A stretch of DNA of 64,000 bases from an uncultured virus (IMG/VR IMGVR_UViG_3300020577_011735) (lineage: Duplodnaviria; Heunggongvirae; Uroviricota; Caudoviricetes), in IMG/VR virus record IMGVR_UViG_3300020577_011735; one strand, written 5' to 3'. Below are positions 1,855 through 58,209 of this stretch, piece by piece. Below the pieces are notes generated by a model. It was not told where the DNA came from. It made no database searches and saw only the letters and a program-made list of their open reading frames with translations. Position 1 is the stretch's first letter; each line of letters starts with the position of its first letter. The translations under genes were made by a program, and so were the position numbers.

Positions 1855-3693
1855 ATGGCAAAGAACATAGAGGAAAAATATAAAAAGTTAGATGATATAT
1901 CACACGTACTTCAAAGAAATTCAATGTATATTGGATCCATTAAACCACACACCGCTGATAAATGGATTATAGAAGAAGGAAGGATGATTCAAAAACAAAT
2001 AACTTATAATCCAGGATTCCTAAAGATATTTGATGAAATTATAACCAACTCTGTCGATGAGAGCAAAAGAATAGGAACTAAATTAAATATAATTAAAGTC
2101 TCAATCGAAAATAATATTATATCTATATGGGACAACGGTGGTATTCCAGTTGTTAAACATAAGGAACATGGGGAATGGATACCTGAAATGATATTTTCTA
2201 ATCTAAAGGCAGGATCTAATTTTGATGATTCAGAAGAAAGAAGTTGGGCGGGCACCAATGGTGTTGGATCAACATTAACTAATATTTTTTCAAAAAAATT
2301 TGTTATTTCTACTTGTGATGGTAAAAATCAATTCGATCAAACTTTTACCAATAATATGAGGGAGAGAACTAAAGTTAAGGTTAAAAAAGCAACTAGAAAT
2401 CACACCGAAATATCATATTTACCAGATTTTGAAAGATTCGGTATTGATTCAATTGATGAGAGTCATTTTAAAATGCTTGAAAAAAGAGTATATGATATAG
2501 CCGCCTCTAACCCAACACTTAAAGTATATTTTAATGGACATTTAATTAACTTCAAATCATTTGAGGATTATATTAAGTTATATACCGAAAATTATTTTTA
2601 TGATACAAAGAAAGATAAAACATGGTCCATTGGTATATCACTTTCTGAGAATGGTTTTCAACAAGTGAGTTTTGTTAACTCAACAGACACATATGATGGT
2701 GGAACGCACCTTGATTATGTTTTAAACCAAATTATATCGGCTTTAAGAGAATTCTTTAGTAAGAAACATAAAGTAGACATTAAACCATCTGAATTAAAAA
2801 ATCATATGTTTGTTTTTCTAAATTCAACTGTAATAAATCCAGCATTCTCTTCTCAAACTAAAGAAAAGCTGATTACAGAAACAAAAGAATTTGGTTCTAC
2901 ATTTGAAGTTTCATCTAAATTAATTCAATCTATATTAAAATCCGAAATCGTTGCTTCTATCTTGGATTGGATTGAACAAAAGAAAAACGCGGATGAGAAT
3001 AAAGCTGCTCGTGAATTAAATAAAAACCTAGCTAAAATAAAAGTTGATAAACTAATTGATGCTAAGGGTAAAGATAGATGGAAGTGTAGTTTAGCTATTT
3101 TTGAAGGAGACTCTGCTTCTTCTGCATTTAGAAAATATAGAGATACCAATACACAAGGAGCCTTTTCACTAAGAGGTAAGTTTATCAATGCTGCAGAAAT
3201 TACTAACCAAAAATTGGTTGCCAATAATGAAGTTATTAATCTAATGGGAGCAATGGGCTTAAAATTAGGACAGAAGGCTGTTCCTGGGACATTAAGATAT
3301 GGTAGAATATTATTCTACTGTGATCAAGATTATGATGGATATTCTATTGTTGGATTATTAATTAATTTCTTATATAAATTTTGGCCAGAACTATTCGAGC
3401 ATAACATGATCTATAAAGTTGAAACTCCAATTGTAGTTTGTCAAAATAAAGCAAAGAAAAAAATATCTTTTTATACTCAGCAAGAATACCTTGATTGGTT
3501 AAAAAAAGTAAATCCAAAAGAATGGGAAATTAAATATAAAAAAGGATTGGCAGCATTAGTAGATGATGAATATAAAGATATTATACATACACCTAAACTA
3601 ACTAAGATTAAAAAAGATGATATTAGTTCTGAGTCACTGAATATATGGTTTGGTAAAGAATCTGATTTAAGAAAAACCGAATTACTAAAATGA
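1855..3693 (+). CDS. DNA topoisomerase II large (ATPase/TOPRIM) subunit, T4 gp39+gp60/GyrB-like
   Basis: GHKL motifs EIITNSVDE, DNGGIP, GTNGVG; TOPRIM motifs EGDSA, LRGK, DQDYDG. Confidence 0.95.
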   Translation: MAKNIEEKYKKLDDISHVLQRNSMYIGSIKPHTADKWIIEEGRMIQKQITYNPGFLKIFDEIITNSVDESKRIGTKLNIIKVSIENNIISIWDNGGIPVVKHKEHGEWIPEMIFSNLKAGSNFDDSEERSWAGTNGVGSTLTNIFSKKFVISTCDGKNQFDQTFTNNMRERTKVKVKKATRNHTEISYLPDFERFGIDSIDESHFKMLEKRVYDIAASNPTLKVYFNGHLINFKSFEDYIKLYTENYFYDTKKDKTWSIGISLSENGFQQVSFVNSTDTYDGGTHLDYVLNQIISALREFFSKKHKVDIKPSELKNHMFVFLNSTVINPAFSSQTKEKLITETKEFGSTFEVSSKLIQSILKSEIVASILDWIEQKKNADENKAARELNKNLAKIKVDKLIDAKGKDRWKCSLAIFEGDSASSAFRKYRDTNTQGAFSLRGKFINAAEITNQKLVANNEVINLMGAMGLKLGQKAVPGTLRYGRILFYCDQDYDGYSIVGLLINFLYKFWPELFEHNMIYKVETPIVVCQNKAKKKISFYTQQEYLDWLKKVNPKEWEIKYKKGLAALVDDEYKDIIHTPKLTKIKKDDISSESLNIWFGKESDLRKTELLK

Positions 3694-15999: not shown

Positions 16000-16085
16000 A
16001 AAATACTCATTTATACATCTCCATGGATAGTATCCATGGACCGACACCCACATAAAAAGTGGGTGTTTACTTTTATATATACCAT

Positions 16086-20064: not shown

Positions 20065-21978
20065 ATGAAATATCTACACACATTTGAAAATCATGAAGAA
20101 ATGAATGAAGGACTAAAAAACTGGTTATCTACATTCCTTATTTTGGCTGGATTAGGATTAGTTCCACCAAGTATTGCACATGGTCAAAACAAAAAACAAC
20201 AAAAAGAATTTGTTGATAATCTTGACCAAGGTAAGATTGATGGTGCACTATTCGTTGACTATTTAAATAAACTCAATACAGGATTATTTCAAAAAAGCCT
20301 ATCATCTGAATTGCCATCATTGTTCGATAAATTTAAAGAACAAAATCCAAATATTAAATCAAGTTATGATAATATTAGAAAATATGTGAATAAAAGTGGT
20401 AAGCAATACATGTTTAATCAAGCGTATATTGAACATGATTATTCTGGTGTTGATATTACTAAATTTCATCCAGATAACTGGCTAACTGATATGGGTAATA
20501 TGATTGAAGACTCAAAAGAGCCAAGTATTAATAACTGGATTTCTGATTATGAAAAATTAACTACTACTGAAATTGGAATAATTACAATCAATAAGCTCCC
20601 TGAAGACAAATCTATTGAAGATTATGCACTTGATCAATTCAGAAGGATTGGTGTAGGTAAAGAAGGTGTAAATAATGGTGTTTTGATTGTTCTATCAAAA
20701 GAAGATAGAAAGTGGAATATTACAACAGGGTATGGTATGGAAGGATTCTTACCAGATGTTACTTGCAGTGAAATTGGTAGGGAGCAAATTGTTCCTCATT
20801 TTAAAGAGAAAGATTATTATGGTGGTATAATGGCTGCTTTAGAGCAAATAAAATCAGTTATAGGGAGTGATCTATTGGAAATAAGAAGAGAGGCCATTGC
20901 TAAAAAGAAAGCTTATGATGATCAAAAATCCGCAGAATTTTGGAATAACTTCTGGCAAATAACACTTCAAGGATTGATGGTGGCACTTCTAATTGCAATA
21001 TTCGCATATGGATATTATAAGAGAATGAAAAAGATTAAGGAGATGAAGGAGATGAAAGAAAACATTGATAAAATCCTTGCTAATATAGAGGGGTTGAAAT
21101 CAAAAATTCCATCAAATGTTGGTATAGTTGGAAGTAAATCCCTACAAGCTTCCTATGATGAGTGTAAGAAATATTTCAACAGTATAGTTATTCAAACCCC
21201 AAAAAATACAGCGGAGTTCAAAGAGGAAATAGAGTTAACATATAGTAGTATGTATTCATTATTTAGAAACTACAAATCTAAATACGATGAAATTAGTAAA
21301 TTTAAATCTGCCGCAAGTGGAGTCCAAGATATAGAATCTTCAGCATACACAACAATTGAAAAGGCAGTTAGAGATGCTAAAAAAATAAGCGATTATGGAT
21401 ATGATGCGGGCCCAATTCCAAATAAATCCGAAATTGAGTCTTTATCAGTAATGATACCTCAGATAATATCATTACTTAATACTGATATTGATAGTGCTGT
21501 TTCTTTATATAAGAAATACACCTCTGGTATATCATCAATTATACAAAAGGCCTCAGGAGTAGCAACTACATTAGGATCTATTGAGAATACTATAAGTAGA
21601 GTTAAAAATTGGGAAAGTGAGGTGGATAGACTGATGAGTAAATTTAAAACTGCTGGTGGTGATAAGTCTGAGCTAAATGATCTTATAGATAAATTTAAAA
21701 ATAAATTATCAGTAACTAAAGACTGGTTTGAACTTGAGAAAGCATTAGATAGTGTTATTAATTTTATGAATGATGTAATTGAAGAATATGAAGCAGAAAT
21801 AAGAAGGAAAGAAGAAGAAAGGAGAAGAAGAGAAGAGGAAAGAAGAAGAAGAAGGAAAGAAGAAGAAAGGAGAAGAAGTAGTTATAGCTCTTACTCATCA
21901 TCTTCATCTTCATCATCCTCATTTGGTGGATTTGGAGGAGGAAGTTCAGGAGGTGGTGGAGCATCTGGTAGTTGGTAA
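20065..21978 (+). CDS. TPM-domain membrane protein with coiled coil and Gly/Ser tail
   Basis: TPM signature IGVGKEGVNNGVLIVLSKEDRKWNITTGYGMEGFLPD; TM helix; ends SFGGFGGGSSGGGGASGSW. Confidence 0.85.
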   Translation: MKYLHTFENHEEMNEGLKNWLSTFLILAGLGLVPPSIAHGQNKKQQKEFVDNLDQGKIDGALFVDYLNKLNTGLFQKSLSSELPSLFDKFKEQNPNIKSSYDNIRKYVNKSGKQYMFNQAYIEHDYSGVDITKFHPDNWLTDMGNMIEDSKEPSINNWISDYEKLTTTEIGIITINKLPEDKSIEDYALDQFRRIGVGKEGVNNGVLIVLSKEDRKWNITTGYGMEGFLPDVTCSEIGREQIVPHFKEKDYYGGIMAALEQIKSVIGSDLLEIRREAIAKKKAYDDQKSAEFWNNFWQITLQGLMVALLIAIFAYGYYKRMKKIKEMKEMKENIDKILANIEGLKSKIPSNVGIVGSKSLQASYDECKKYFNSIVIQTPKNTAEFKEEIELTYSSMYSLFRNYKSKYDEISKFKSAASGVQDIESSAYTTIEKAVRDAKKISDYGYDAGPIPNKSEIESLSVMIPQIISLLNTDIDSAVSLYKKYTSGISSIIQKASGVATTLGSIENTISRVKNWESEVDRLMSKFKTAGGDKSELNDLIDKFKNKLSVTKDWFELEKALDSVINFMNDVIEEYEAEIRRKEEERRRREEERRRRRKEEERRRSSYSSYSSSSSSSSSFGGFGGGSSGGGGASGSW

Positions 21979-27282: not shown

Positions 27283-29028
27283 ATGGGAACACACAATAGT
27301 AACAACTACGACATTGAAGATACACAATTTGGAACTTCATTCGGATACTGCAGACCGTACACCGATCAATCAAATGAGTTCATAAGTGTAAAAAAAGTAA
27401 AACTACCTAAAAGAAAAATTCATAAAACCCCAAGATTACTAATCGCTGATTCTTATACAATTAGTTCTAATTTGTTCGCTTCAGAAGAAGCTAAAGAAAA
27501 ATCTGTTTATTACATTACCTATCGTAGGGTATTAGAAAAAGTCAATCACAATCTTTATAATAAAGGGGATAATCGTATTGTATTTACTGGTTTGTCAAGA
27601 ATACTTGATTATTTATTTTACGAGCCAATTACACATGAAGAAATTGATGAAACTAAAAGATTCTTAGCAGATAAGAAAGTAACTACAAAAGGCCTTAAAC
27701 CAATGTACTTCCCAGAGGAACTTTGGAGAAGAATTGTAGATGAGTATAATGGTCGACCTCCAATTAAAATTAGAGCGGTTAAAGAAGGATCGGTTGTATA
27801 TCCAAATGAACCAGTTGTTATCATTGAAAATATCCCAGAAGGATTTGGTGAATTAGCTGCTTGGTTTGAGAGTACAATTCTAAAGATTTGGGCTTCTTGT
27901 GAAATGGTTACACAACTTGCTCACTGGTTTGAATATTGTAAGAGTATAGTATATCATGTATATAGAGATACCATTTCTAAAGACCAGGTAAAGTTCTTAG
28001 CTGGATTAATGTTACATAACTTTGGATGTAGAGCGGGTATGGTTCCACAAGAATCCGAATGGCTAGCCGCAGATGCACTTTATATTTTTTCTGGTACAGA
28101 TACATTTTCTGGAGCATATCAAGCATGGAAAAATTCAGGAGAAGCTGCAGGTATCGCAAGTTCTGTATTTGCTTTGGCTCACAGAAATGTTCAAGGGTTT
28201 GAAAGTGAAAAAGATTGTCACGAAAAATTAAACAGTGTCGCTGAAGATGGATCTATTGACTCACACGTAGCTGACTGTTACGCATATTTCGACACTGTTG
28301 AAAACATTTTACTTCCGTTAGCAATGCAAAATGCAATTGAAGAAAATGGCAAAGTTGTTGTAGGTCGCCCTGACTCTGGAGATCCTGCAGAACAAGTATT
28401 ATGGTTATGTAAATTGGCACACAAACACGGATTGTCTACTGTACAAACAATTCTTAAAAAAGAATGGCGTTTTGGAACAAGTATGAAATTTATTGAAGGT
28501 GATGGTATGAGTTGGGAAAAAATGAAAGAGATTAATGAAGATTTGATTCTACATGGGTTTCCTCCTTTCGCTTGGGGTCTTTATGGAGTTGGAGGTGGAT
28601 TGAGAAATGAATTAGCAAGAGATAACTTCTCAGCTAAATATGCACTATGTGCTATTGGTAAGGAATTGAAACCTGTTTGTAAGTTCTCTGAAACACTTGA
28701 GAAAACAACATTACCAGGACCCTTTAAACTCTTAAGAAGTAAAGAGGCTTTAGAGTCTATGAAAACAGTTGTCTTCCCAGACGAGCCAGGAGAAGATGTA
28801 ATGGTCGATTATTTTAATGGGGCCGATATATGGGAACCTTTCAAAGAGGGTTATAATGACGACTTCTTGACTATTAAACAACGTATTCAAGACCAAATGG
28901 AAACAATGCCATTAACGCTATCAAATATGGACAATCACAATTATCCAACATCTGATAAGATTAAAGAGGTAAGGATTCAGTTATTAAAGAAATACGCTCC
29001 TAAAAAGTTAGCTCAAAACTATTCATAA
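27283..29028 (+). CDS. nadV: nicotinamide phosphoribosyltransferase (Nampt)
   Basis: ADSY, LHNFGCRA, FSGTDT, RPDSGDP, EGDG, GVGGGL; adjacent to NadM-Nudix. Confidence 0.88.
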   Translation: MGTHNSNNYDIEDTQFGTSFGYCRPYTDQSNEFISVKKVKLPKRKIHKTPRLLIADSYTISSNLFASEEAKEKSVYYITYRRVLEKVNHNLYNKGDNRIVFTGLSRILDYLFYEPITHEEIDETKRFLADKKVTTKGLKPMYFPEELWRRIVDEYNGRPPIKIRAVKEGSVVYPNEPVVIIENIPEGFGELAAWFESTILKIWASCEMVTQLAHWFEYCKSIVYHVYRDTISKDQVKFLAGLMLHNFGCRAGMVPQESEWLAADALYIFSGTDTFSGAYQAWKNSGEAAGIASSVFALAHRNVQGFESEKDCHEKLNSVAEDGSIDSHVADCYAYFDTVENILLPLAMQNAIEENGKVVVGRPDSGDPAEQVLWLCKLAHKHGLSTVQTILKKEWRFGTSMKFIEGDGMSWEKMKEINEDLILHGFPPFAWGLYGVGGGLRNELARDNFSAKYALCAIGKELKPVCKFSETLEKTTLPGPFKLLRSKEALESMKTVVFPDEPGEDVMVDYFNGADIWEPFKEGYNDDFLTIKQRIQDQMETMPLTLSNMDNHNYPTSDKIKEVRIQLLKKYAPKKLAQNYS

Positions 29029-29048: not shown

Positions 29049-29082
29049 AAACCACACCTGGTCTAAGGGTGTGGTTTTTTTT
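29049..29082 (+). terminator. Rho-independent terminator
   Basis: ACCACACC/GGTGTGGT stem followed by a T-run, downstream of Nampt. Confidence 0.75.
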
Positions 29083-42308: not shown

Positions 42309-43460
42309 ATGATTCAAAGATATTTTACATTTTTAAATGAGGCTCACATTGACCTTCCTTTAGACAAATTAGAGGAATATAAAGAAAAACTAAATGATGA
42401 GTTAGACTTGTATATGAATTTCATTTTATCTAAAATAAGTTGGAAGAATAACCAAGTATTTTATAAGGATTTTGAGAATATTGATATTAATTTAATATTA
42501 ACTGATTTAGAAGAAAAGTTAGGTAAGGATGTTGTTGATATTTTTAATGTCGAAGCCTTTCTAAGAAAAATATATCAAATATTAGATTTAAGACAAAAAA
42601 GCACAAAGAGAAATGTTAGAGATGAATTTATTGAATACTACATCTCGTTGGATAATAGAGTAGAAACTATAGCAGGTGAAGATAAAGAAACCGCATATGA
42701 TAAATATTATGATGAAAGGGAAGGTGAGAGATCACTTATCTCCAGAAATGTATATGAAAAAGAAAAATTCGATATACAAGTAGAGTTATTAAAGTTGCAA
42801 GAGTGGGTTAGAGAGAATAAGAAGAAAATAGCTATTGTATTTGAAGGAAGGGACACATCCGGAAAAGGATCAACAATTAAAAGATTTATTGAATATCTTG
42901 ATCCTAAAGGATTTAGGATTGTTGCTTTAGGCGTCCCAACAGAAGAAGAAAAAAATAACTGGTTTGCCAGATATGAAAATCATATGCCAAAACCAGGGGA
43001 AATAGTCTTCTTTGATAGAAGTTGGCATAATAGATCAATAGTTGAGCCAGCTATGGGATATTGTACCGAAAAGCAGTATAAAGATTTTATGGAAAGTGTT
43101 AATGATTGGGAAGAAAGCTTAATAAATGATGGAATCATTTTAGTTAAATTTTGGTTCTCAATAACAAAAGAAAAACAACAAAAAAGATTCGAGTTAAGAC
43201 AAAAATCTCCTCTTAAATATTGGAAGTTCTCACCAAATGATGCTAAGGTGGTTGATAAATGGGATTTAATAACCTATTATAAAAATCAAATGTTTAACCA
43301 CAACTCTACTAGTAAATGTCCTTGGGTAGTCTTAAACTCTAATGATAAAAGAATTGCTAGATTAAATGCTATGAGATATGTTCTGAGTATTGTGGACTAT
43401 GACGATAAAAATGATGAGGTTAGCAAGTACTATCCAGAAGTTGTTAATATCCTAAAATAA
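42309..43460 (+). CDS. ppk2: polyphosphate kinase 2 with N-terminal extension
   Basis: FEGRDTSGKGSTIKR Walker A, FFDRSW, LVKFWFSI, WKFSPND. Confidence 0.92.
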   Translation: MIQRYFTFLNEAHIDLPLDKLEEYKEKLNDELDLYMNFILSKISWKNNQVFYKDFENIDINLILTDLEEKLGKDVVDIFNVEAFLRKIYQILDLRQKSTKRNVRDEFIEYYISLDNRVETIAGEDKETAYDKYYDEREGERSLISRNVYEKEKFDIQVELLKLQEWVRENKKKIAIVFEGRDTSGKGSTIKRFIEYLDPKGFRIVALGVPTEEEKNNWFARYENHMPKPGEIVFFDRSWHNRSIVEPAMGYCTEKQYKDFMESVNDWEESLINDGIILVKFWFSITKEKQQKRFELRQKSPLKYWKFSPNDAKVVDKWDLITYYKNQMFNHNSTSKCPWVVLNSNDKRIARLNAMRYVLSIVDYDDKNDEVSKYYPEVVNILK

Positions 43461-44764: not shown

Positions 44765-44790
44765 AAAATCCCCTCAAGTGAGGGGATTTT
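44765..44790. terminator. bidirectional terminator
   Basis: AAAATCCCCTC-AAGT-GAGGGGATTTT between convergent genes. Confidence 0.8.
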
Positions 44791-50638: not shown

Positions 50639-51421
50639 ATGGCAGATAAACTAACACTCAAACTAAATAAAGATAAATTTTCTGATTTTGTTTCTAAGTT
50701 ACAAGACTTAACAAACATATCAGATGTTATCAAGTTAAAAATAGACGCTGATAACATCTTAGCCTATTCAATGCTATCCAATGATGTAGCTGTATTAGCA
50801 CTTAAAAATTATTTATTAGATACATCTGAATACATTACCAACTTCAAGTCTGATAAAATATTTGACTACATTATAACTGGTGCATCCAAATTTGTTAAAA
50901 ATCTTAAATTTTTTAATTCAGAGTTGCCTATAGAATTAGAGTTAAACTACAAACCAAATGAAGATGACGAAACAATGCATGTTAGATCCGCTAGGTATTC
51001 AAATGGTAAATTAAAAATATCTTGTGTGGGTGGTGAACTCTCTAAAGTTAGAGATATCAACAAGACCTCCTTGGAATCAAGATTAAATCCAAAAGCATCA
51101 AAATGGGGATTCAAAGTTGGAAAGTCAGACTTTATGGATATTAAAAAATTATCATCTATCAATTCAGAAGATAGAGTTCTTACTGTCTTAGTAAATAGTG
51201 GAAAAGTCCTTGTAACAGAAGAATATAAGTGGGAACTTGAAGTAGATGAAATAGAAGATAGAAATACAAAAATTATTTTTAATAAGAAATATCTTTCTAA
51301 TATTGATGATACAAATGAGGTTATCGAATTCAAAATATTTGAAACTTTTATTTTAGTGAAAGATGATAACTCAAATTTAATGCTGAGCTTCGAGACCGAT
51401 TTCCAAAACGATCAAGATTGA
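50639..51421 (+). CDS. putative DNA sliding clamp (T4 gp45/PCNA-like)
   Basis: 260 aa, two-domain alternating beta/alpha pattern; replication-gene context. Confidence 0.45.
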   Translation: MADKLTLKLNKDKFSDFVSKLQDLTNISDVIKLKIDADNILAYSMLSNDVAVLALKNYLLDTSEYITNFKSDKIFDYIITGASKFVKNLKFFNSELPIELELNYKPNEDDETMHVRSARYSNGKLKISCVGGELSKVRDINKTSLESRLNPKASKWGFKVGKSDFMDIKKLSSINSEDRVLTVLVNSGKVLVTEEYKWELEVDEIEDRNTKIIFNKKYLSNIDDTNEVIEFKIFETFILVKDDNSNLMLSFETDFQNDQD

Positions 51422-52287
51422 TATCTATTTCCTTTTGAAATATTTTCTCTCCACTCAAGAGGTTGAAAATTTGTATAATGATTTAATTTATAAATCTCCT
51501 CCTCTGTTTTCGCCCATGATACTGGTATAATATGATCCAATTGCCAATATGTAGCATAGTTATCCCAACTCATCTCTTTTGTAAACTTTGATTCAATATG
51601 TATTTTAAATTCGTCAAAGGTACATCCTAAAATTTCAATTGTTTTTTTAGCCTTTTTTGTATATCTAAGTTTAAATGACTGTGTTATCAATGTCCTAATG
51701 GAACACGAAAGTTTATATAGTGGATTATTGGATTTTTTATTTCTAATATAAATTCTATTTAATTCATTATATCTATCCTTATTTTTATGATAATGCTCCC
51801 TTTTTTTAGAAGTAAGATGATCTTTATTATCCTTTTGATATTTTTTAACTTTATCTTTATTTTCTTGATACCATTCTTTCTTTTTAAGTGATATTTCCTC
51901 TTTATTTTCCTCCCTATACTTCTTTTGCCTTATTAGAATTTCTTCTCTATTTTTTTCATGCCACTCATGCCCATATTTTAATTTTTCATCCTTATTGTTT
52001 TGATAATATTCTTCGACTTTACTTTTGATTTTGTCTTTATTTTTCTCATAATATTCCTTTTTATTATTTTGGATTTTATCTTTATTTTCCTCCCTATACT
52101 TCTTTTTTCTTTCCTTAATTGTTTTTTCATTTGATATTGAATATAATTTTCGATATTCTTTAATTTTATCTTTATTACGTTTTGCATATTCCTTTTTGTA
52201 TTCTGATACACAAGATTTACAAACACAACCCTTTTTTGGAAAATCTACTATTTCTTTTTCAATTAAACACTTATTACATAATTTCAT
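51412..52287 (-). mobile_element. HNH-type homing endonuclease with long K/E/Y/N coiled repeats
   Basis: CNKC/CKSC, Y(R/Y)E.NK(D/E)KI repeats, LGCT..EF..HIES.F...MSWDNY..WQLDHIIP...HYTNFQPL...N..K. Confidence 0.8.
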
Positions 52288-53721: not shown

Positions 53722-54066
53722 ATGGGTAAATCTAAGCTTGATAGGGCTAATAAATTTATAAAATCTCAGGGGTTTGAAAATAACGTGCTGAGGTTTATAC
53801 CTGATATAAGCCACATTAAGGTTAAGCCGGATGAGAATAAAAGGGGCTATTTTATAACCATTGTGCAGGATATAATAGAAGCCACGGATATTATTGATTA
53901 CTTTACTGATCGGTTTAACAAAAGATTTTCAAAAAAGAATGAAAAGAATAAAATAGTATTTGAAGGATATTCACAAGGTGATAACAAAGGAAAGAAAGTC
54001 TCTATTATAAGATTTTATTATAGAGCAAATTTATTTGAAAGAAAATTATTATTTAAATCATTTTAA
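53722..54066 (+). CDS. hypothetical protein
   Basis: 114-aa ORF after TATATTTG. Confidence 0.6.
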   Translation: MGKSKLDRANKFIKSQGFENNVLRFIPDISHIKVKPDENKRGYFITIVQDIIEATDIIDYFTDRFNKRFSKKNEKNKIVFEGYSQGDNKGKKVSIIRFYYRANLFERKLLFKSF

Positions 54067-54069
54067 GTT

Positions 54070-54495
54070 ATGAGATTATTTGGAAAAATAAACGATAAAT
54101 TTTCGGAGGAAATTCATAATCCTTTAGGATTAGAAACAGTTGATGGAAAAATTCCAATTCCACCCAAGCCTATTTTATATGGCAATAAATTTAAAATAAA
54201 AATTTCTACCAGTGATAAGGCATCATCAATGGCAAATGCTTTGCATAATATATCTATATTCGGTATTTATCGTATAAACGCGTCAACTGACATAGCAAAT
54301 TTTATAGCCTATCATCTCAATAAAATGAGTAAACAATTTTATACTGAAACGCTAGAAAAACTAGCTGATGATTACAGTTGTTTACCTGAATTAGGAAATC
54401 AGGAGTATTGCACAATAAGCTTTGAACTAAATAAGCAACAAACTATAGAGTTTATGGAGTTAATTGAAAAAGCAAGTCAAGGGGTTTCTATTTAA
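54070..54495 (+). CDS. hypothetical protein
   Basis: 141-aa ORF. Confidence 0.6.
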   Translation: MRLFGKINDKFSEEIHNPLGLETVDGKIPIPPKPILYGNKFKIKISTSDKASSMANALHNISIFGIYRINASTDIANFIAYHLNKMSKQFYTETLEKLADDYSCLPELGNQEYCTISFELNKQQTIEFMELIEKASQGVSI

Positions 54496-54537
54496 ATATT
54501 ATCCAAACATTTCTATCCTTATATCATATAAAACAAT

Positions 54538-54669
54538 ATGAATAGGGAAGAAAAATTAAAAAAATTAGAGAGCCTGAAAAGGAAAGCTACAGAGCTTAAG
54601 AAGGACGTTGATTACTACAACGCAATTCAGACAGCTTTGAAGTTGGTACTTAATGGTTCTTATGTTTAG
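54538..54669 (+). CDS. family-B DNA polymerase fingers segment with first part of motif B (not in ORF track)
   Basis: MNREEKLKKLESLKRKATELKKDVDYYNAIQTALKLVLNGSY-V-TAG; QxAxKxxxNxxY is PolB motif B lacking its Gly. Confidence 0.85.
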   Translation: MNREEKLKKLESLKRKATELKKDVDYYNAIQTALKLVLNGSYV

Positions 54670-54703
54670 TCCCCTTGCTGAAAGGTGAGGGGACAAAATG
54701 AAA
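54664..54703 (+). other. 40-nt structured intervening sequence in polymerase motif B
   Basis: Removal restores NGSY-GAFATQYF in frame; contains TAG and hairpin GTCCCCTTGCT-GAAA-GGTGAGGGGAC. Confidence 0.75.
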
Positions 54704-55993
54704 GGAGCATTCGCAACACAGTATTTCATACTGTTTAATGAACACGTAGCTGGTACTATTACCGCTCAGGGTCGTGACCTAACACAAACAATGCATCATG
54801 TGAATGAGGACTATTGGTATAATCAGTGGCACCTTGATACAGAATTGCATAAGAATCTCTGTGTTAAGAATGTGACACAGATATCTAAAGATGAAGGAGT
54901 TTCTATCTATGCGGATACTGACTCTCTATTCGTCTCTTTTAAGCCTGCAATTGATCACTCTGATTGGAAGAATTTAATCTTCAACAATATAAATGGTCTC
55001 AAAGATAGTTTTGTTGTATTGGAACATGCACACACAACCAAGATAGACAATGCAAATTGTCTAGGCACAGTTAATAATGTCAATGATTTAAAATCATTCT
55101 TAGAGTCAAATAATCCTAAAATAATTGTAATTGATGGTTATTATGTTAAGAATAGAGATTTAAAAAATGTAGATTTAAAAGATAAGAGAATTTTATGGAA
55201 CTGGTCTAACGAACTAGATTATATACACGGAATTGACCATTTTAGATATGGTGGTTACTTTAAAAAGCAACTAGAAGAGTACGCTGATAAGTATGGTGTA
55301 GAAAATAAGGAAGACTTTGAATTAGAAAGAATATCAGAATCAATCATTAATATTGCTAAAAAGAAATATATTCAACATATTGTATATGAAGATGGTATTC
55401 CTTATGATAGATTAACCTATATGTATCCGAAAGGTGTTGAGCTCGTTAGATCGTCTACACCTTTGTTTGCAAGAGATAAGATTGTAGGAATTATCAAATA
55501 TCTATTTAGTAATCCAGAAACCTTTAATATAAAAGAATTGTTGAAATTGGTTAAGGGATTAAGAAAAGAGTTTGATCTTTGTGTTCCTGATAAAATTGAT
55601 GAAATAGCAATGCAATCATCCTGTTCTAATTATGAAGAAAAAGTATTGAACGATAAGAATAAATTAGAGTTTGTTAGTGGCGCTCACTTTGCAGTAAAAG
55701 CAAGTGCTTACTATAACTACCTTCTACATAAGAACGTTTCATTACATGAGAAGTATGAGTATATAAAATCTGGTACTAAAATTAAATATTATTATTGTAA
55801 AAATAAATCAGTTAATGATATTTTTGCGTATATTCGTGGAACATATCCAGTTGAAATGGCACCAGATATTGATTTAGATGTTCAGTTTGAGAAATCAATT
55901 TTATCACCAATAAATTCGATCATTGCACCATTAGGATTACCAGAAATAAATAAGAGATTGAGTGTTGTAATGGACATATTTGGTGGGGAATAA
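54698..55993 (+). CDS. family-B DNA polymerase, C-terminal palm/thumb portion
   Basis: GAF...YF, ITAQGR, motif C IYADTDS, AKKKY, KGVELVRSSTP. Confidence 0.92.
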   Translation: MKGAFATQYFILFNEHVAGTITAQGRDLTQTMHHVNEDYWYNQWHLDTELHKNLCVKNVTQISKDEGVSIYADTDSLFVSFKPAIDHSDWKNLIFNNINGLKDSFVVLEHAHTTKIDNANCLGTVNNVNDLKSFLESNNPKIIVIDGYYVKNRDLKNVDLKDKRILWNWSNELDYIHGIDHFRYGGYFKKQLEEYADKYGVENKEDFELERISESIINIAKKKYIQHIVYEDGIPYDRLTYMYPKGVELVRSSTPLFARDKIVGIIKYLFSNPETFNIKELLKLVKGLRKEFDLCVPDKIDEIAMQSSCSNYEEKVLNDKNKLEFVSGAHFAVKASAYYNYLLHKNVSLHEKYEYIKSGTKIKYYYCKNKSVNDIFAYIRGTYPVEMAPDIDLDVQFEKSILSPINSIIAPLGLPEINKRLSVVMDIFGGE

Positions 55994-56012
55994 TTTAATA
56001 TAAAAATCTATA

Positions 56013-56483
56013 ATGAGGAAAAATACATATAAAATACCAGCGATTGGATCTTGTGAGGTGTGTAAAAAAAAGAATGTTAATTTAACAAGAACATATTTTC
56101 ATTACGATAATGTAAAATGCTCTTGTCATTCGCCGAATCACTTTATAGTAATTGATCATTGTGATACTTGTGTTCCGGTAGAGCCAGCTGAGACAAAAAT
56201 TCATATTAAAACAAAAGATTTAGATAGCCCAATTGATAAGCTATCTATATCATTGCGTGATGATGAGGGTTATTATATATCATGGAAATCAAATATTGCT
56301 ATGGCTTTCTATGATGTTTTTATAAATAAATCTAATATTTCAAATCAAGAAATTCACAAATTATCAAATCAAGCTGCTGATAATTTTTTACAATTATTAA
56401 TTTATCCTGAATCAGCGGCATCACATAGAAATAAAAAAATTGAAAAAATAATAGGTGTTGAATATATTGAATTAAAAAAATAA
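56013..56483 (+). CDS. hypothetical Cys/His-rich protein with C-terminal tag
   Basis: CEVC, CSCH, HCDTC; ends HRNKKIEKIIG... Confidence 0.65.
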   Translation: MRKNTYKIPAIGSCEVCKKKNVNLTRTYFHYDNVKCSCHSPNHFIVIDHCDTCVPVEPAETKIHIKTKDLDSPIDKLSISLRDDEGYYISWKSNIAMAFYDVFINKSNISNQEIHKLSNQAADNFLQLLIYPESAASHRNKKIEKIIGVEYIELKK

Positions 56484-56539: not shown

Positions 56540-56998
56540 ATGATAAGTAAAGTAATAATAGAAAATGAATTCTTTGATGAATTAGTTGAAGTTGCAAGAA
56601 AATCAACTTGCCACCGATCTAAATGTGGATCTATAATCGTTAAAGATGGTAAAATAATTGGTGCTGGATATAACTCACAACCTTGTAATGTCGAGGGTGA
56701 GTGCTTTAAAGATTTTTTACCTAGTGAATTTAAGAGTGATAAGACTTGTTGCATTCATGCTGAACAGCGGGCTATCTTTGATGCACTTAAAAGAAATGGA
56801 AATATGTTAGAGGGTAGTATATTGTTCTTTATTCGGTTAGATGAGAATGATAATCCAAAGAGATCTGGTGATCCATATTGTACAATATGTAGTAAATCAG
56901 CTTTGGATGTTGGCATAAGTAAATTTTGCTTATGGCATCAATCTGGATGGACAGCATATGAAACCGAATATTATAATAAATTATCCTTTAAATTATGA
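56540..56998 (+). CDS. dCMP/cytidine deaminase-family protein
   Basis: STC, GYNSQP, HAEQ, PYCTIC zinc motifs. Confidence 0.85.
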   Translation: MISKVIIENEFFDELVEVARKSTCHRSKCGSIIVKDGKIIGAGYNSQPCNVEGECFKDFLPSEFKSDKTCCIHAEQRAIFDALKRNGNMLEGSILFFIRLDENDNPKRSGDPYCTICSKSALDVGISKFCLWHQSGWTAYETEYYNKLSFKL

Positions 56999-57286: not shown

Positions 57287-57518
57287 ATACTTCGATACCT
57301 TTTCTGAAGCTGAAAATTATTTTAATGAAGTTAAAGAACATAGTAAATATGTATGTTTTTTATATAGTCATCATGCATATTCAGAAGGATATTGGATTGA
57401 GTTTGAAAATCCAACCAATTTATTTGGTACAATAATAAATATTCACGATATTGTAGATATTAGGGATGAAAAAATAAGAGAAATATTAAATGAAAAAGAG
57501 AAAGATATTAGTATTTAG
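57276..57518 (+). CDS. hypothetical protein with C-terminal tag
   Basis: Ends IRDEKIREILNE... Confidence 0.6.
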   Translation: MQSRYFDTFSEAENYFNEVKEHSKYVCFLYSHHAYSEGYWIEFENPTNLFGTIINIHDIVDIRDEKIREILNEKEKDISI

Positions 57519-58209
57519 CGGAGCTGGTGTTTCCGCTGAAAGTGGAGTGAAAACATTTAGGGATCACGGTGGACTATGGGATAATTTCAAAGTAGAAGAT
57601 GTTGCAACAATTGATGCTTGGAATGCAAACCCTCAACCAGTTATAGATTTTTATAACTTTAGAAGAAAGGAATTAAATGGAGTTTCTCCTAATCAAGCTC
57701 ACTACACTATTGCTGAGTTGGAAAAGGATTTTGATGTTACTGTATCAACACAAAATGTTGATGATTTGCATGAAAGAGCTGGTTCAAGCAATGTAATACA
57801 TCTACATGGTGAATTAACCAAACTTAAAAGTGAAACAGATGACACTATCCTAAAATCATTTGATATTGATTTGAAGTTAGGAGACTTGGCACCAGATGGT
57901 GGTCAATGGAGACCTGATATTGTTTGGTTTGGTGAAGATTTAGATTTTATGAGAATGCATAATACTAAAGTTGCTGCTCAAGAATGTGATGTCTGTATTA
58001 TTGTAGGTACTTCTATGAAAGTATCTCCTGCAAATGGAATTCCTTGGCAGACAAAAGAAACGACAATTATTTACTATGTTGATCCAGGTGATATGGATTT
58101 CTATGTTCCTGAATATAGGAGAGGATTTTTCTATCACATACAAAAGCCTGCGACTGAAGGCATGAAAGAGGTTATGGATGATTTAAAAGAAATTTATCTT
58201 AATCAATAA
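57490..58209 (+). CDS. Sir2/CobB-family NAD-dependent deacylase
   Basis: SGAGVSAESG..TFR, TQNVDDLHERAG, HLHG, RPDIVWFGE, VGTS. Confidence 0.93.
   Translation: MKKRKILVFSGAGVSAESGVKTFRDHGGLWDNFKVEDVATIDAWNANPQPVIDFYNFRRKELNGVSPNQAHYTIAELEKDFDVTVSTQNVDDLHERAGSSNVIHLHGELTKLKSETDDTILKSFDIDLKLGDLAPDGGQWRPDIVWFGEDLDFMRMHNTKVAAQECDVCIIVGTSMKVSPANGIPWQTKETTIIYYVDPGDMDFYVPEYRRGFFYHIQKPATEGMKEVMDDLKEIYLNQ

Follow-up and report, generated by a model that had tools for sequence, protein, structure and literature searches.

A hairpin-bearing gap within motif B of a huge-phage DNA polymerase gene as a candidate for translational bypassing

How could a continuous DNA polymerase be made from a gene that is interrupted, within a conserved motif of its active domain, by bases which no reading frame crosses? 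The question is raised by a 64,000-nucleotide (nt) stretch of DNA from an uncultured virus of the Caudoviricetes (IMG/VR record IMGVR_UViG_3300020577_011735), hereafter called the window, in which 40 extra bases separate two codons of motif B of a family-B polymerase. According to the reading favored here, to which a probability of roughly 0.58 is assigned, these bases would constitute a non-coding gap of the kind known from gene 60 of bacteriophage T4, to be skipped by the translating ribosome. From the anatomy, the conservation, and the mobility of the gap family to which the insert belongs we infer that it is the ribosome that does the skipping. Within this family the window's copy is an atypical and informative outlier.

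The interrupted gene and its uninterrupted relatives

The gene begins with an open reading frame (ORF) of 43 amino acids on the plus strand (54538-54669), the product of which ends in Tyr and Val before TAG. The next ORF on the same strand (54698-55993, 431 amino acids) is in the +1 frame relative to the first one and starts with Met-Lys-Gly-Ala-Phe. In comparison with uninterrupted relatives, 40 extra bases (54664-54703) are located between the Tyr and the Gly codon of motif B, the position of the junction being ambiguous by one base. The upstream frame is closed by TAG 54667 and TGA 54679 and the downstream frame by TGA 54686; because of these stops and of the change of frame, neither readthrough nor a single frameshift can join the two parts. 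A core hairpin (54669-54694) with a stem of 11 base pairs (bp), three of them G-U, a C-rich 5′ arm, a G-rich 3′ arm, and a GAAA tetraloop forms the center of an extended helix (54652-54711). For the segment 54640-54725, this helix represents the fold of minimum energy (-30.9 kcal/mol, z = -4.8, with 0 of 200 shuffled sequences folding as well); it is nearly continuous, with single mismatches, and includes both junctions of the gap. On all of these points, that is, the two ORFs and the 40-nt deletion that restores motif B, the one-base ambiguity, the single helix around the GAAA stem, and the stops that exclude simple readthrough or frameshifting, the first-pass annotation of this DNA was borne out by the ORFs, the fold, and the uninterrupted relatives.

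Except for the gap, the gene is undamaged and has its full length. Its first 42 codons (54538-54663), which encode the first helix of the fingers and the beginning of motif B, are colinear with the uninterrupted relatives and end at UAU 54661-54663, the proposed take-off codon. They are followed by the sense codon GUU and the in-frame stop UAG (54664-54669), the core hairpin, and an A-rich spacer (54695-54700) ending in AUG 54698-54700, which is in frame with the downstream ORF and serves as candidate reinitiation codon in a rival reading. The proposed landing triplet, AAA 54701-54703, is situated 7 nt past the hairpin and agrees with the take-off codon at the middle base only. Coding sequence would resume at 54704 with the Gly codon of motif B and, according to translation and Pfam, continues through palm and thumb to the stop at 55993; the 431-amino acid ORF matches Pfam DNA_pol_B from profile position 170. 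In the fold, the codons for Asn-Gly-Ser are paired with those for Gly-Ala-Phe, and because of this outer helix the take-off and the landing triplet face each other.

The 40-nt gap is real DNA. At least half of the sampled words of the stretch are present in 11 sequencing runs; contigs were aligned for two of these, X1 and X5, which come from different studies, and in both the insert is contained without alignment gaps. While the X1 contig is identical to the window and may be the record's own source, the X5 contig (850 nt, covering 54492-55300) shows 1 difference in 809 aligned bases and no gap. Absence of the insert from independent sequence data, which had been named at the outset as a finding that would speak against it, is contradicted by this contig from another study.

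The nearest annotated records are the four largest genomes (634, 636, 642, and 735 kb) of Al-Shayeb et al. 2020, which are assigned, in the accessible part of that study, to the Mahaphage clade with predicted Bacteroidetes hosts. In all four of these complete huge-phage genomes, motif B is covered by one continuous ORF, the start of which lies about 43 codons ahead of it, and over this stretch an uninterrupted relative aligns with Sulfolobus PolB1 (1S5J) in the region of its motif B. The N-terminal half of the enzyme (N-half), a protein of 515 amino acids with the exonuclease domain and motif A, was found in the two complete genomes searched to be encoded more than 130 kb away on the opposite strand, for which reason the polymerase is regarded as a two-gene enzyme throughout the clade. 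The 43-codon ORF, first taken for the front of the polymerase, is indeed a gene start; as judged from the alignments, it is the true start of a separate gene for the C-terminal half (C-half). The 42 residues upstream are rich in Lys in relatives with a gap as well as in those without one. In the four records searched with PF00136, the matches over the cut-off comprise only the two halves of this one enzyme.

A match to PF03104 in the related record G001 was considered as the N-half and rejected; it belongs to a separate exonuclease-like ORF of 263 amino acids. At this locus (L099, G001:C1:65464-68769), a GIY-YIG-like ORF lies directly upstream of the exonuclease-like one (positions 572-1351 and 1348-2139, resp.), and the pair looks like another endonuclease-invaded replication gene, with the GIY-YIG label read from the sequence. 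A phage homologue of IF-3 (IF3_N, IF3_C) is encoded just upstream of the gap-free C-half gene at L022 (592-1131, plus strand) and likewise at L023 and L024.

The gap family: anatomy, codons, and mobility

For the survey, 161 loci were compiled (76 from viral contigs, 80 from metagenomes, the window, and four phage records). Both sequence anchors were present in 137 of them; the 24 loci lacking one or both were excluded from all counts. The alignment of relatives for presence, absence, and covariation of the insert, as proposed in the first-pass annotation, revealed that 75 of the 137 loci are interrupted and 62 uninterrupted, that all gaps fall within the same 12 codons, and that the hairpin covaries. 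L003 was scored as uninterrupted, its apparent 6-nt insert being an anchor artefact. The interrupted loci represent 49 distinct sequences with gaps at six codon sites, namely, Ala, Leu, Val, Gly, Ser, and Tyr. In one gene, L141, a gap at the Leu site (CUU to CUA) is combined with a second one at the Tyr site (UAU to UAA), at a distance of nine codons, and its translation would require two skips in succession. At L065, L066, L068, L069, L058, L059, L071, L073, L126, and L084-L086, about 500 extra bases are found within the C-half match, or the match to the window protein begins at residue 75 or 169. These irregularities suggest that the gene is interrupted or split at additional places in such loci, for instance by an intein, an intron, or a further endonuclease gene.

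The anatomy was computed on 48 distinct single gaps. Their length is 36-48 nt, mostly not a multiple of three. The hairpin sets in 5-6 nt past the take-off codon in 33 of them and 0-4 nt past it in the remainder, and it ends 4-9 nt ahead of the landing triplet in 41, with a short A/U-rich spacer in between; in many Leu- and Ala-site gaps this spacer ends with UGA or UAA just before the landing codon. An in-frame stop is the second codon past take-off in 34 gaps and the first codon in four. The basal four to five stem pairs have C in the 5′ arm and G in the 3′ arm in 46/48 gaps, and above this clamp five or six pair types occur at each of the stem positions 6-10, all of them Watson-Crick or G-U. 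GNRA or UUCG loops are present in 20 gaps, the sense-strand fold is stabler than the antisense fold in 43, and G-U pairs account for 39 of 559 pairs. On this comparative evidence, selection acts on the gap hairpin as an RNA structure of the mRNA strand. Triplets sharing the first two bases of the take-off codon are depleted between loop and landing site; they occur in 12/48 gaps, whereas 500 shuffles gave 19.7 on average and never fewer than 11.

The codons that flank the gaps are most telling at the sites other than Tyr. There, a synonymous copy of the take-off codon stands just before the resumed frame in 29 of 29 distinct gaps. The pairs are CUU to CUA (17 gaps) and CUC to CUA (1) at the Leu site; GUU to GUA (3) at the Val site; GCU to GCA (2), GCU to GCU (3), and GCC to GCU (1) at the Ala site; and UCU to UCA (1) and GGU to GGU (1) at the Ser and the Gly site, respectively. 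The third base differs in 25 of the 29 pairs, with 24 changes from NNU or NNC to NNA and one from GCC to GCU. Since the copies are for that reason not perfect 3-nt repeats, an origin as 3-nt target-site duplication was rejected. The coding sequence of these genes contains one codon too many, which fits the re-pairing of a retained peptidyl-tRNA, while splicing needs no such copy. A take-off codon of the NNU type, forming a wobble pair with a U34 or G34 tRNA, together with a landing codon of the type NNA or, for Tyr, UAC would favor first release and then capture of the tRNA.

At the Tyr site, the landing triplets of the 20 distinct gaps are UAC (3), UAU (1), UAA (5), UAG (1), AAC (5), AAU (1), GAC (1), AGC (1), and AAA (2, namely, the window and L122). 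They are synonymous with the take-off codon UAY in 4 of the 20 gaps, and most of them agree with UAY at two bases. The earlier statement that matched codons for take-off and landing are missing holds for the window; it does not hold for its relatives, which possess them at all non-Tyr gaps and at these four Tyr-site gaps. Two other placements of the codons were tried for the Tyr site and rejected. Take-off at the Gly of Asn-Gly-Ser with landing on GGA would lose Ser-Tyr-Gly of motif B and leave the four gaps with duplicated Tyr codons unexplained; if take-off were at GUU and landing on AUG or GUG, only L122 would fit, and two residues would be added.

With regard to the surrounding structure, the gaps fall into two architectures. 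The first one was assessed by folding the 54 nt up to and including the take-off codon and averaging the energies, the same span being used for gap-free genes. A strong stem-loop ending at the take-off codon is found in Ala-site (-21.9 kcal/mol, n = 5) and Leu-site gaps (-22.4 kcal/mol, n = 21), compared with -6.4 kcal/mol in gap-free genes (n = 47, strongest -11.5 kcal/mol); the values for Val-site gaps (n = 3), Tyr-site gaps (n = 19), and the window (n = 1) are -8.4, -7.7, and -4.6 kcal/mol, respectively. The second architecture is the outer helix described above for the window, in which the Asn-Gly-Ser codons pair with the Gly-Ala-Phe codons. It is present in 19 of 19 distinct Tyr-site gaps; 10 of 18 Leu-site gaps do not form it and have the exon end held in the 5′ stem-loop instead. 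The resume codon is GGA in 18/20 Tyr-site gaps versus 24/49 gap-free genes.

Several lines of evidence concern the mobility of the gaps. In most gap-bearing loci, the ORF directly upstream of the C-half gene is divergently oriented and matches Pfam DUF7487 as well as PHROG "homing endonuclease". Counted over distinct loci with at least 1000 nt of upstream sequence, the DUF7487 ORF was found in 30 of the 48 loci with a gap and in 0 of the 41 loci without one (Fisher's exact test, 1.7e-11, uncorrected for phylogeny); one of the 30 occurrences is a remnant of 70 amino acids only. GIY-YIG genes are found upstream in two gap-bearing loci and one gap-free locus. The DUF7487 copy of G001 ends in an HNH-like motif, so named from its sequence. 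By inspection, the endonucleases fall into two groups by similarity, one going with the Ala/Leu/Val gap sites and the other with Gly/Ser/Tyr. On a quick tree of 93 C-half proteins (rows with an open frame of 380-470 amino acids after the gap), the gap labels need 36 changes, compared with a minimum of 6 and a shuffled mean of 41.3, and near-identical polymerases differ in the presence or the site of the gap.

A particularly close comparison is that of the window with G001, its nearest relative. From the start of the gene to about 25 nt past the gap (54538-54727) the two sequences are strongly diverged and carry different gaps at different codons; from about 54727 onwards they are approximately 99% identical. 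G001 has no insert at the Tyr codon and instead a different one of 36 nt, located 18 nt upstream at a Val codon. Here the Val codon is followed by TAA, then by a GAAA-looped hairpin of the C-run/G-run type and, after a short spacer, by a second Val codon and the remainder of motif B. Such a mosaic is the pattern that a homing co-conversion tract would leave. As far as can be read from tree, alignment, and linkage, the gaps move between near-identical polymerase genes and travel with a homing endonuclease gene. In the window no endonuclease gene adjoins the polymerase gene. At 2.2 kb upstream, on the minus strand (51412-52287), a Lys-rich ORF of 291 amino acids with a Cys-rich start, an HNH-like end, and matches to PHROG endonuclease VII and HNH is found; next to a 260-amino acid ORF (50639-51421), it is probably another free-standing homing endonuclease.

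Proposed translational bypassing and its rivals

The gap family is read as a set of translational bypass cassettes because its parts match those listed for T4 gene 60. Work on the bypass in that gene, within the MobA element, reportedly includes that of Huang in 1988 and of Bonocora in 2011. In the accessible text of Manning and Atkins (bioRxiv 10.1101/2022.08.31.505936), from which the gene 60 features were taken, the following points of likeness are found: an untranslatable gap (36-50 nt over both systems) in an essential replication gene that is split in two, located some 40-46 codons from the start of the second half; a stop soon past take-off; a stable hairpin with a tetraloop, placed at the take-off codon or beside it; matched flanking codons, which here holds for most relatives; a G-rich stretch 5-8 nt ahead of landing, followed by an A/U-rich spacer; a 5′ stem-loop, here in two site classes; the avoidance of premature landing sites; and, with MobA, a linked free-standing endonuclease of the HNH type and repeated loss and gain of the cassette. 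There are also differences. The gene affected here is that of a family-B polymerase, interrupted in motif B, and not that of a topoisomerase; there are six codon sites and not two; the hairpin nearly fills the gap, and the stop is usually the second codon past take-off; the endonuclease gene is divergent and the polymerase halves are non-adjacent; the hosts are probably Shine-Dalgarno (SD)-poor Bacteroidota; and the landing triplet of the window is unmatched. The likeness is one of features, and the locus does not represent a MobA element, which comprises a topoisomerase large-subunit gene next to mobA, since a PolB C-half gene is found here with a DUF7487 protein with an HNH-like end and, in the window, no adjoining endonuclease gene.

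Applied to the window, the proposed pathway would comprise four steps. A ribosome that has started at 54538 would arrive with the Tyr codon UAU 54661-54663 in its P site. Normal decoding would then be impeded by the C/G-clamped GAAA hairpin six bases further on and by UAG two codons ahead. A hairpin starting at about +9 from the P-site codon could hinder the binding of tRNA to the A site, an effect of hairpins reported in the accessible part of 10.1101/2020.02.05.936120. Subsequently, peptidyl-tRNA(Tyr) would release the mRNA, and the ribosome would get past the hairpin. Eventually, decoding would restart at GGA 54704, resulting in a continuous C-half with intact motif B. The landing triplet of the window being non-cognate, landing would either be set mainly by geometry, that is, by the hairpin, the 7-nt spacer, and the outer helix, or be inefficient. 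In analogy to MobA and gene 60, the gap would protect the gene from the linked endonuclease. Neither the window nor the 185 kb of G001 yielded tRNA genes that could explain an odd decoding. Of the four mechanisms that had been offered without a choice in the first-pass annotation, unmatched bypassing is the one which, as a form of bypassing, is favored by the comparative data.

A second system with features of this kind is that of the byp elements in mitochondria of Magnusiomyces capitatus, reportedly described by Lang in 2014 and Nosek in 2015. These elements, which are also mentioned by Manning and Atkins, are likewise numerous short, GC-rich, mobile hairpin inserts that interrupt coding sequence in an AT-rich genome, with take-off and landing triplets that are often, not always, matched. 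They are said to be spread over many mitochondrial genes and to have no link to an endonuclease, whereas all copies of the present family are confined to 12 codons of one phage gene.

A number of observations weigh against bypassing. In the window, AAA shares one base with UAU and is not readable by the same tRNA, and among the relatives only L122 is alike. The Tyr-site class, including the window, does not have the strong 5′ stem-loop, nor does the Val class. Take-off is usually followed by a sense codon in common use (GUU, UUU), unlike the stop or rare codon of gene 60. The duplicated dinucleotides could be 2-nt target-site duplications. Since these genomes barely use SD sequences, a role of the G-run as a mini-SD is uncertain; with regard to the hosts, Bacteroidota are probable according to the accessible part of Al-Shayeb et al. 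2020. The in-frame AUG of the window could be reused by a terminating ribosome. RNA contigs of the metatranscriptome runs X15 and X16 span 55008-55300 only, which is outside the gap, and many of the loci surveyed are related to each other and do not represent independent samples. With rather low confidence, the window's copy and L122 may be regarded as a natural case of long-range bypassing without codon-anticodon re-pairing, in which the hairpin would be skipped as a folded unit and landing be determined by geometry, the landing triplet being placed by the helix opposite the take-off triplet. The polymerase gaps of huge phages would then form a second, structurally different class of bypass device, of which dozens of natural variants exist. 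For the window's copy, reinitiation and RNA excision are both kept as rivals on account of the landing triplet AAA versus UAU, the in-frame AUG, and the lack of an adjacent endonuclease gene.

In the case of reinitiation, the enzyme would be a split protein. Translation would stop at UAG 54667 and restart at AUG 54698, 29 nt downstream, and the products of 43 and 431 amino acids would assemble with the N-half. This is considered unlikely, even as the rival that survives best. The AUG is in frame and lies 8 nt past the G-run; it is paired in the folded mRNA and would become accessible once the upstream ORF is translated; in L122, GUG occupies this position; and the enzyme is already made of two separately encoded halves. 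A similar division is found in the finger-split gp43A/gp43B polymerases of some T4-like phages, reportedly studied by Petrov and colleagues, which are also family-B enzymes encoded by two genes with a break near the fingers. In the present clade, however, the split is the background state of all members and leaves the extra 40-nt gap unexplained. Within the Tyr-site class, an in-frame start (ATG, GTG, or TTG) occurs in the 3′ spacer of only 3 of 20 gaps (the window, L122, and L037), which is about the chance rate, while 7 of 20 have a stop directly ahead of the resume codon, and the ATG present in many Leu- and Ala-site spacers (ATGA before the landing codon) is out of frame. The break would, moreover, fall inside what we take, from RB69 structures, to be the continuous helix of motif B, with Val added at one end and Met-Lys at the other. 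The GAGG ahead of ATG 54698, which had been cited in support of a restart, carries little weight as a ribosome-binding site; the genes concerned do not use SD sequences, and GAGG precedes only one of the 70 window ORFs of at least 120 amino acids, namely, this 431-amino acid one, the start codons being located in A/T-rich leaders. Judged from the sequences of the whole gap family, reinitiation is most improbable as its mechanism.

In the case of RNA excision, a protein endonuclease would recognize the long helix and remove the hairpin, and an RNA ligase would rejoin the exons, which would make the gap a protein-dependent micro-intron. Such a pathway would account for the location of both junctions of the window in one helix, for the pairing of the exon ends by the outer helix in all of the Tyr-site gaps, with the flanking triplets facing each other in some folds, and for the toleration of unmatched landing triplets. 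It is nevertheless thought quite improbable. It leaves unexplained why codons are copied synonymously at five sites, why the change runs from NNU to NNA, and why an in-frame stop and the 5′ stem-loop are present, and the outer helix on which it depends is missing in more than half of the Leu-site gaps (10/18). Archaeal bulge-helix-bulge introns and those of the HAC1/XBP1 type resemble the proposed element in that a short RNA is removed by an endonuclease and a ligase at junctions held in a defined structure. The fold of the window has neither bulge-helix-bulge nor twin-loop geometry; no pair of 3-nt bulges 4 bp apart is found in it, so that the bulge-helix-bulge-like cut initially suggested is not supported, and the 4-nt stagger of the junctions agrees neither with RNase III (2 nt) nor with bulge-helix-bulge cleavage. 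The search of 54300-55000 against Rfam families, with E up to 1, yielded 0 matches, and with an insert of only 40 nt a self-splicing group I or group II intron or a known ribozyme is not indicated either. Neither an enzymology for this kind of excision in bacteria or phages nor a protein-dependent splicing pathway for phage mRNAs is known.

That the window contains a dead or crippled allele, with the gap as selfish DNA and replication provided by another polymerase or by co-infecting phages, is very unlikely. A decaying remnant would fit the weakest landing match of the family, the four G-U pairs of the extended stem, and the lack of an adjoining endonuclease gene, but the rest of the gene is intact, the same allele occurs in contigs of two studies, 75/137 relatives carry gaps without other damage, and no second family-B polymerase was found over the PF00136 cut-off in the four records searched. 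An assembly or sequencing artefact can be dismissed for practical purposes, since the contigs of the two studies agree base for base over the gap and homologous gaps occur in dozens of independent assemblies.

Significance and further features of the window

A search of the literature, largely without subscription journals, yielded no description of a gap or of bypassing in the polymerase gene of these phages. In the accessible text of 10.1101/2022.08.31.505936, the gene 60 cassette is called unique and is stated to be found only in topoisomerase genes, and the word "polymerase" does not occur there. Efficient long-range bypassing in bacteria and phages rests on one model, T4 gene 60. If the reading as a bypass cassette is true, the polymerase gaps would provide a second natural system in another essential gene, with 49 distinct sequences at six codon sites. 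They would form a natural mutational series comprising two architectures (5′ stem-loop and closing helix) and matched, near-matched, and unmatched landing triplets, in hosts that probably do without Shine-Dalgarno pairing. The combination of a homing endonuclease with an untranslatable gap would then represent a general strategy by which the most conserved portion of a gene is invaded while the gene survives. In practice, the polymerase comes out of gene callers split or truncated when huge-phage genomes are annotated.

The hairpin of the window was also traced outside the gap. Within the window, the core hairpin occurs once (up to 3 mismatches allowed; expectation 0.06). Exact scans of viral and metagenome collections for it yielded 0 matches, as did a degenerate scan of viral contigs for a 3′ junction of the window/L122 type, and 0 terminator-like sites were found in 53800-56200. 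Other comparable hairpins in the window and G001 are terminator-like with U-tails (44765-44790 in the window, several in G001), apart from three further ones at 16043-16067 and 29049-29077 of the window and 91736-91760 of G001; from this it follows that the gap hairpin is not a dispersed repeat. The hairpins at 44765-44790 of the window and at 146190-146217 of G001, among others, consist of a C-run/G-run clamp and a U-tail and look like the ordinary terminators of the phage. That the gap hairpins share this C/G clamp without the U-tail hints at a possible origin of the cassette hairpin.

The window has a GC content of 28%. According to Pfam, it further encodes a GyrB-like topoisomerase subunit (1855-3693), a TPM-domain protein (20065-21978), a NAMPT/NAPRTase-like enzyme (27283-29028), and a PPK2 polyphosphate kinase (42309-43460), as well as, downstream of the polymerase gene, a dCMP deaminase (56540-56998) and a Sir2 family protein (57490-58209).

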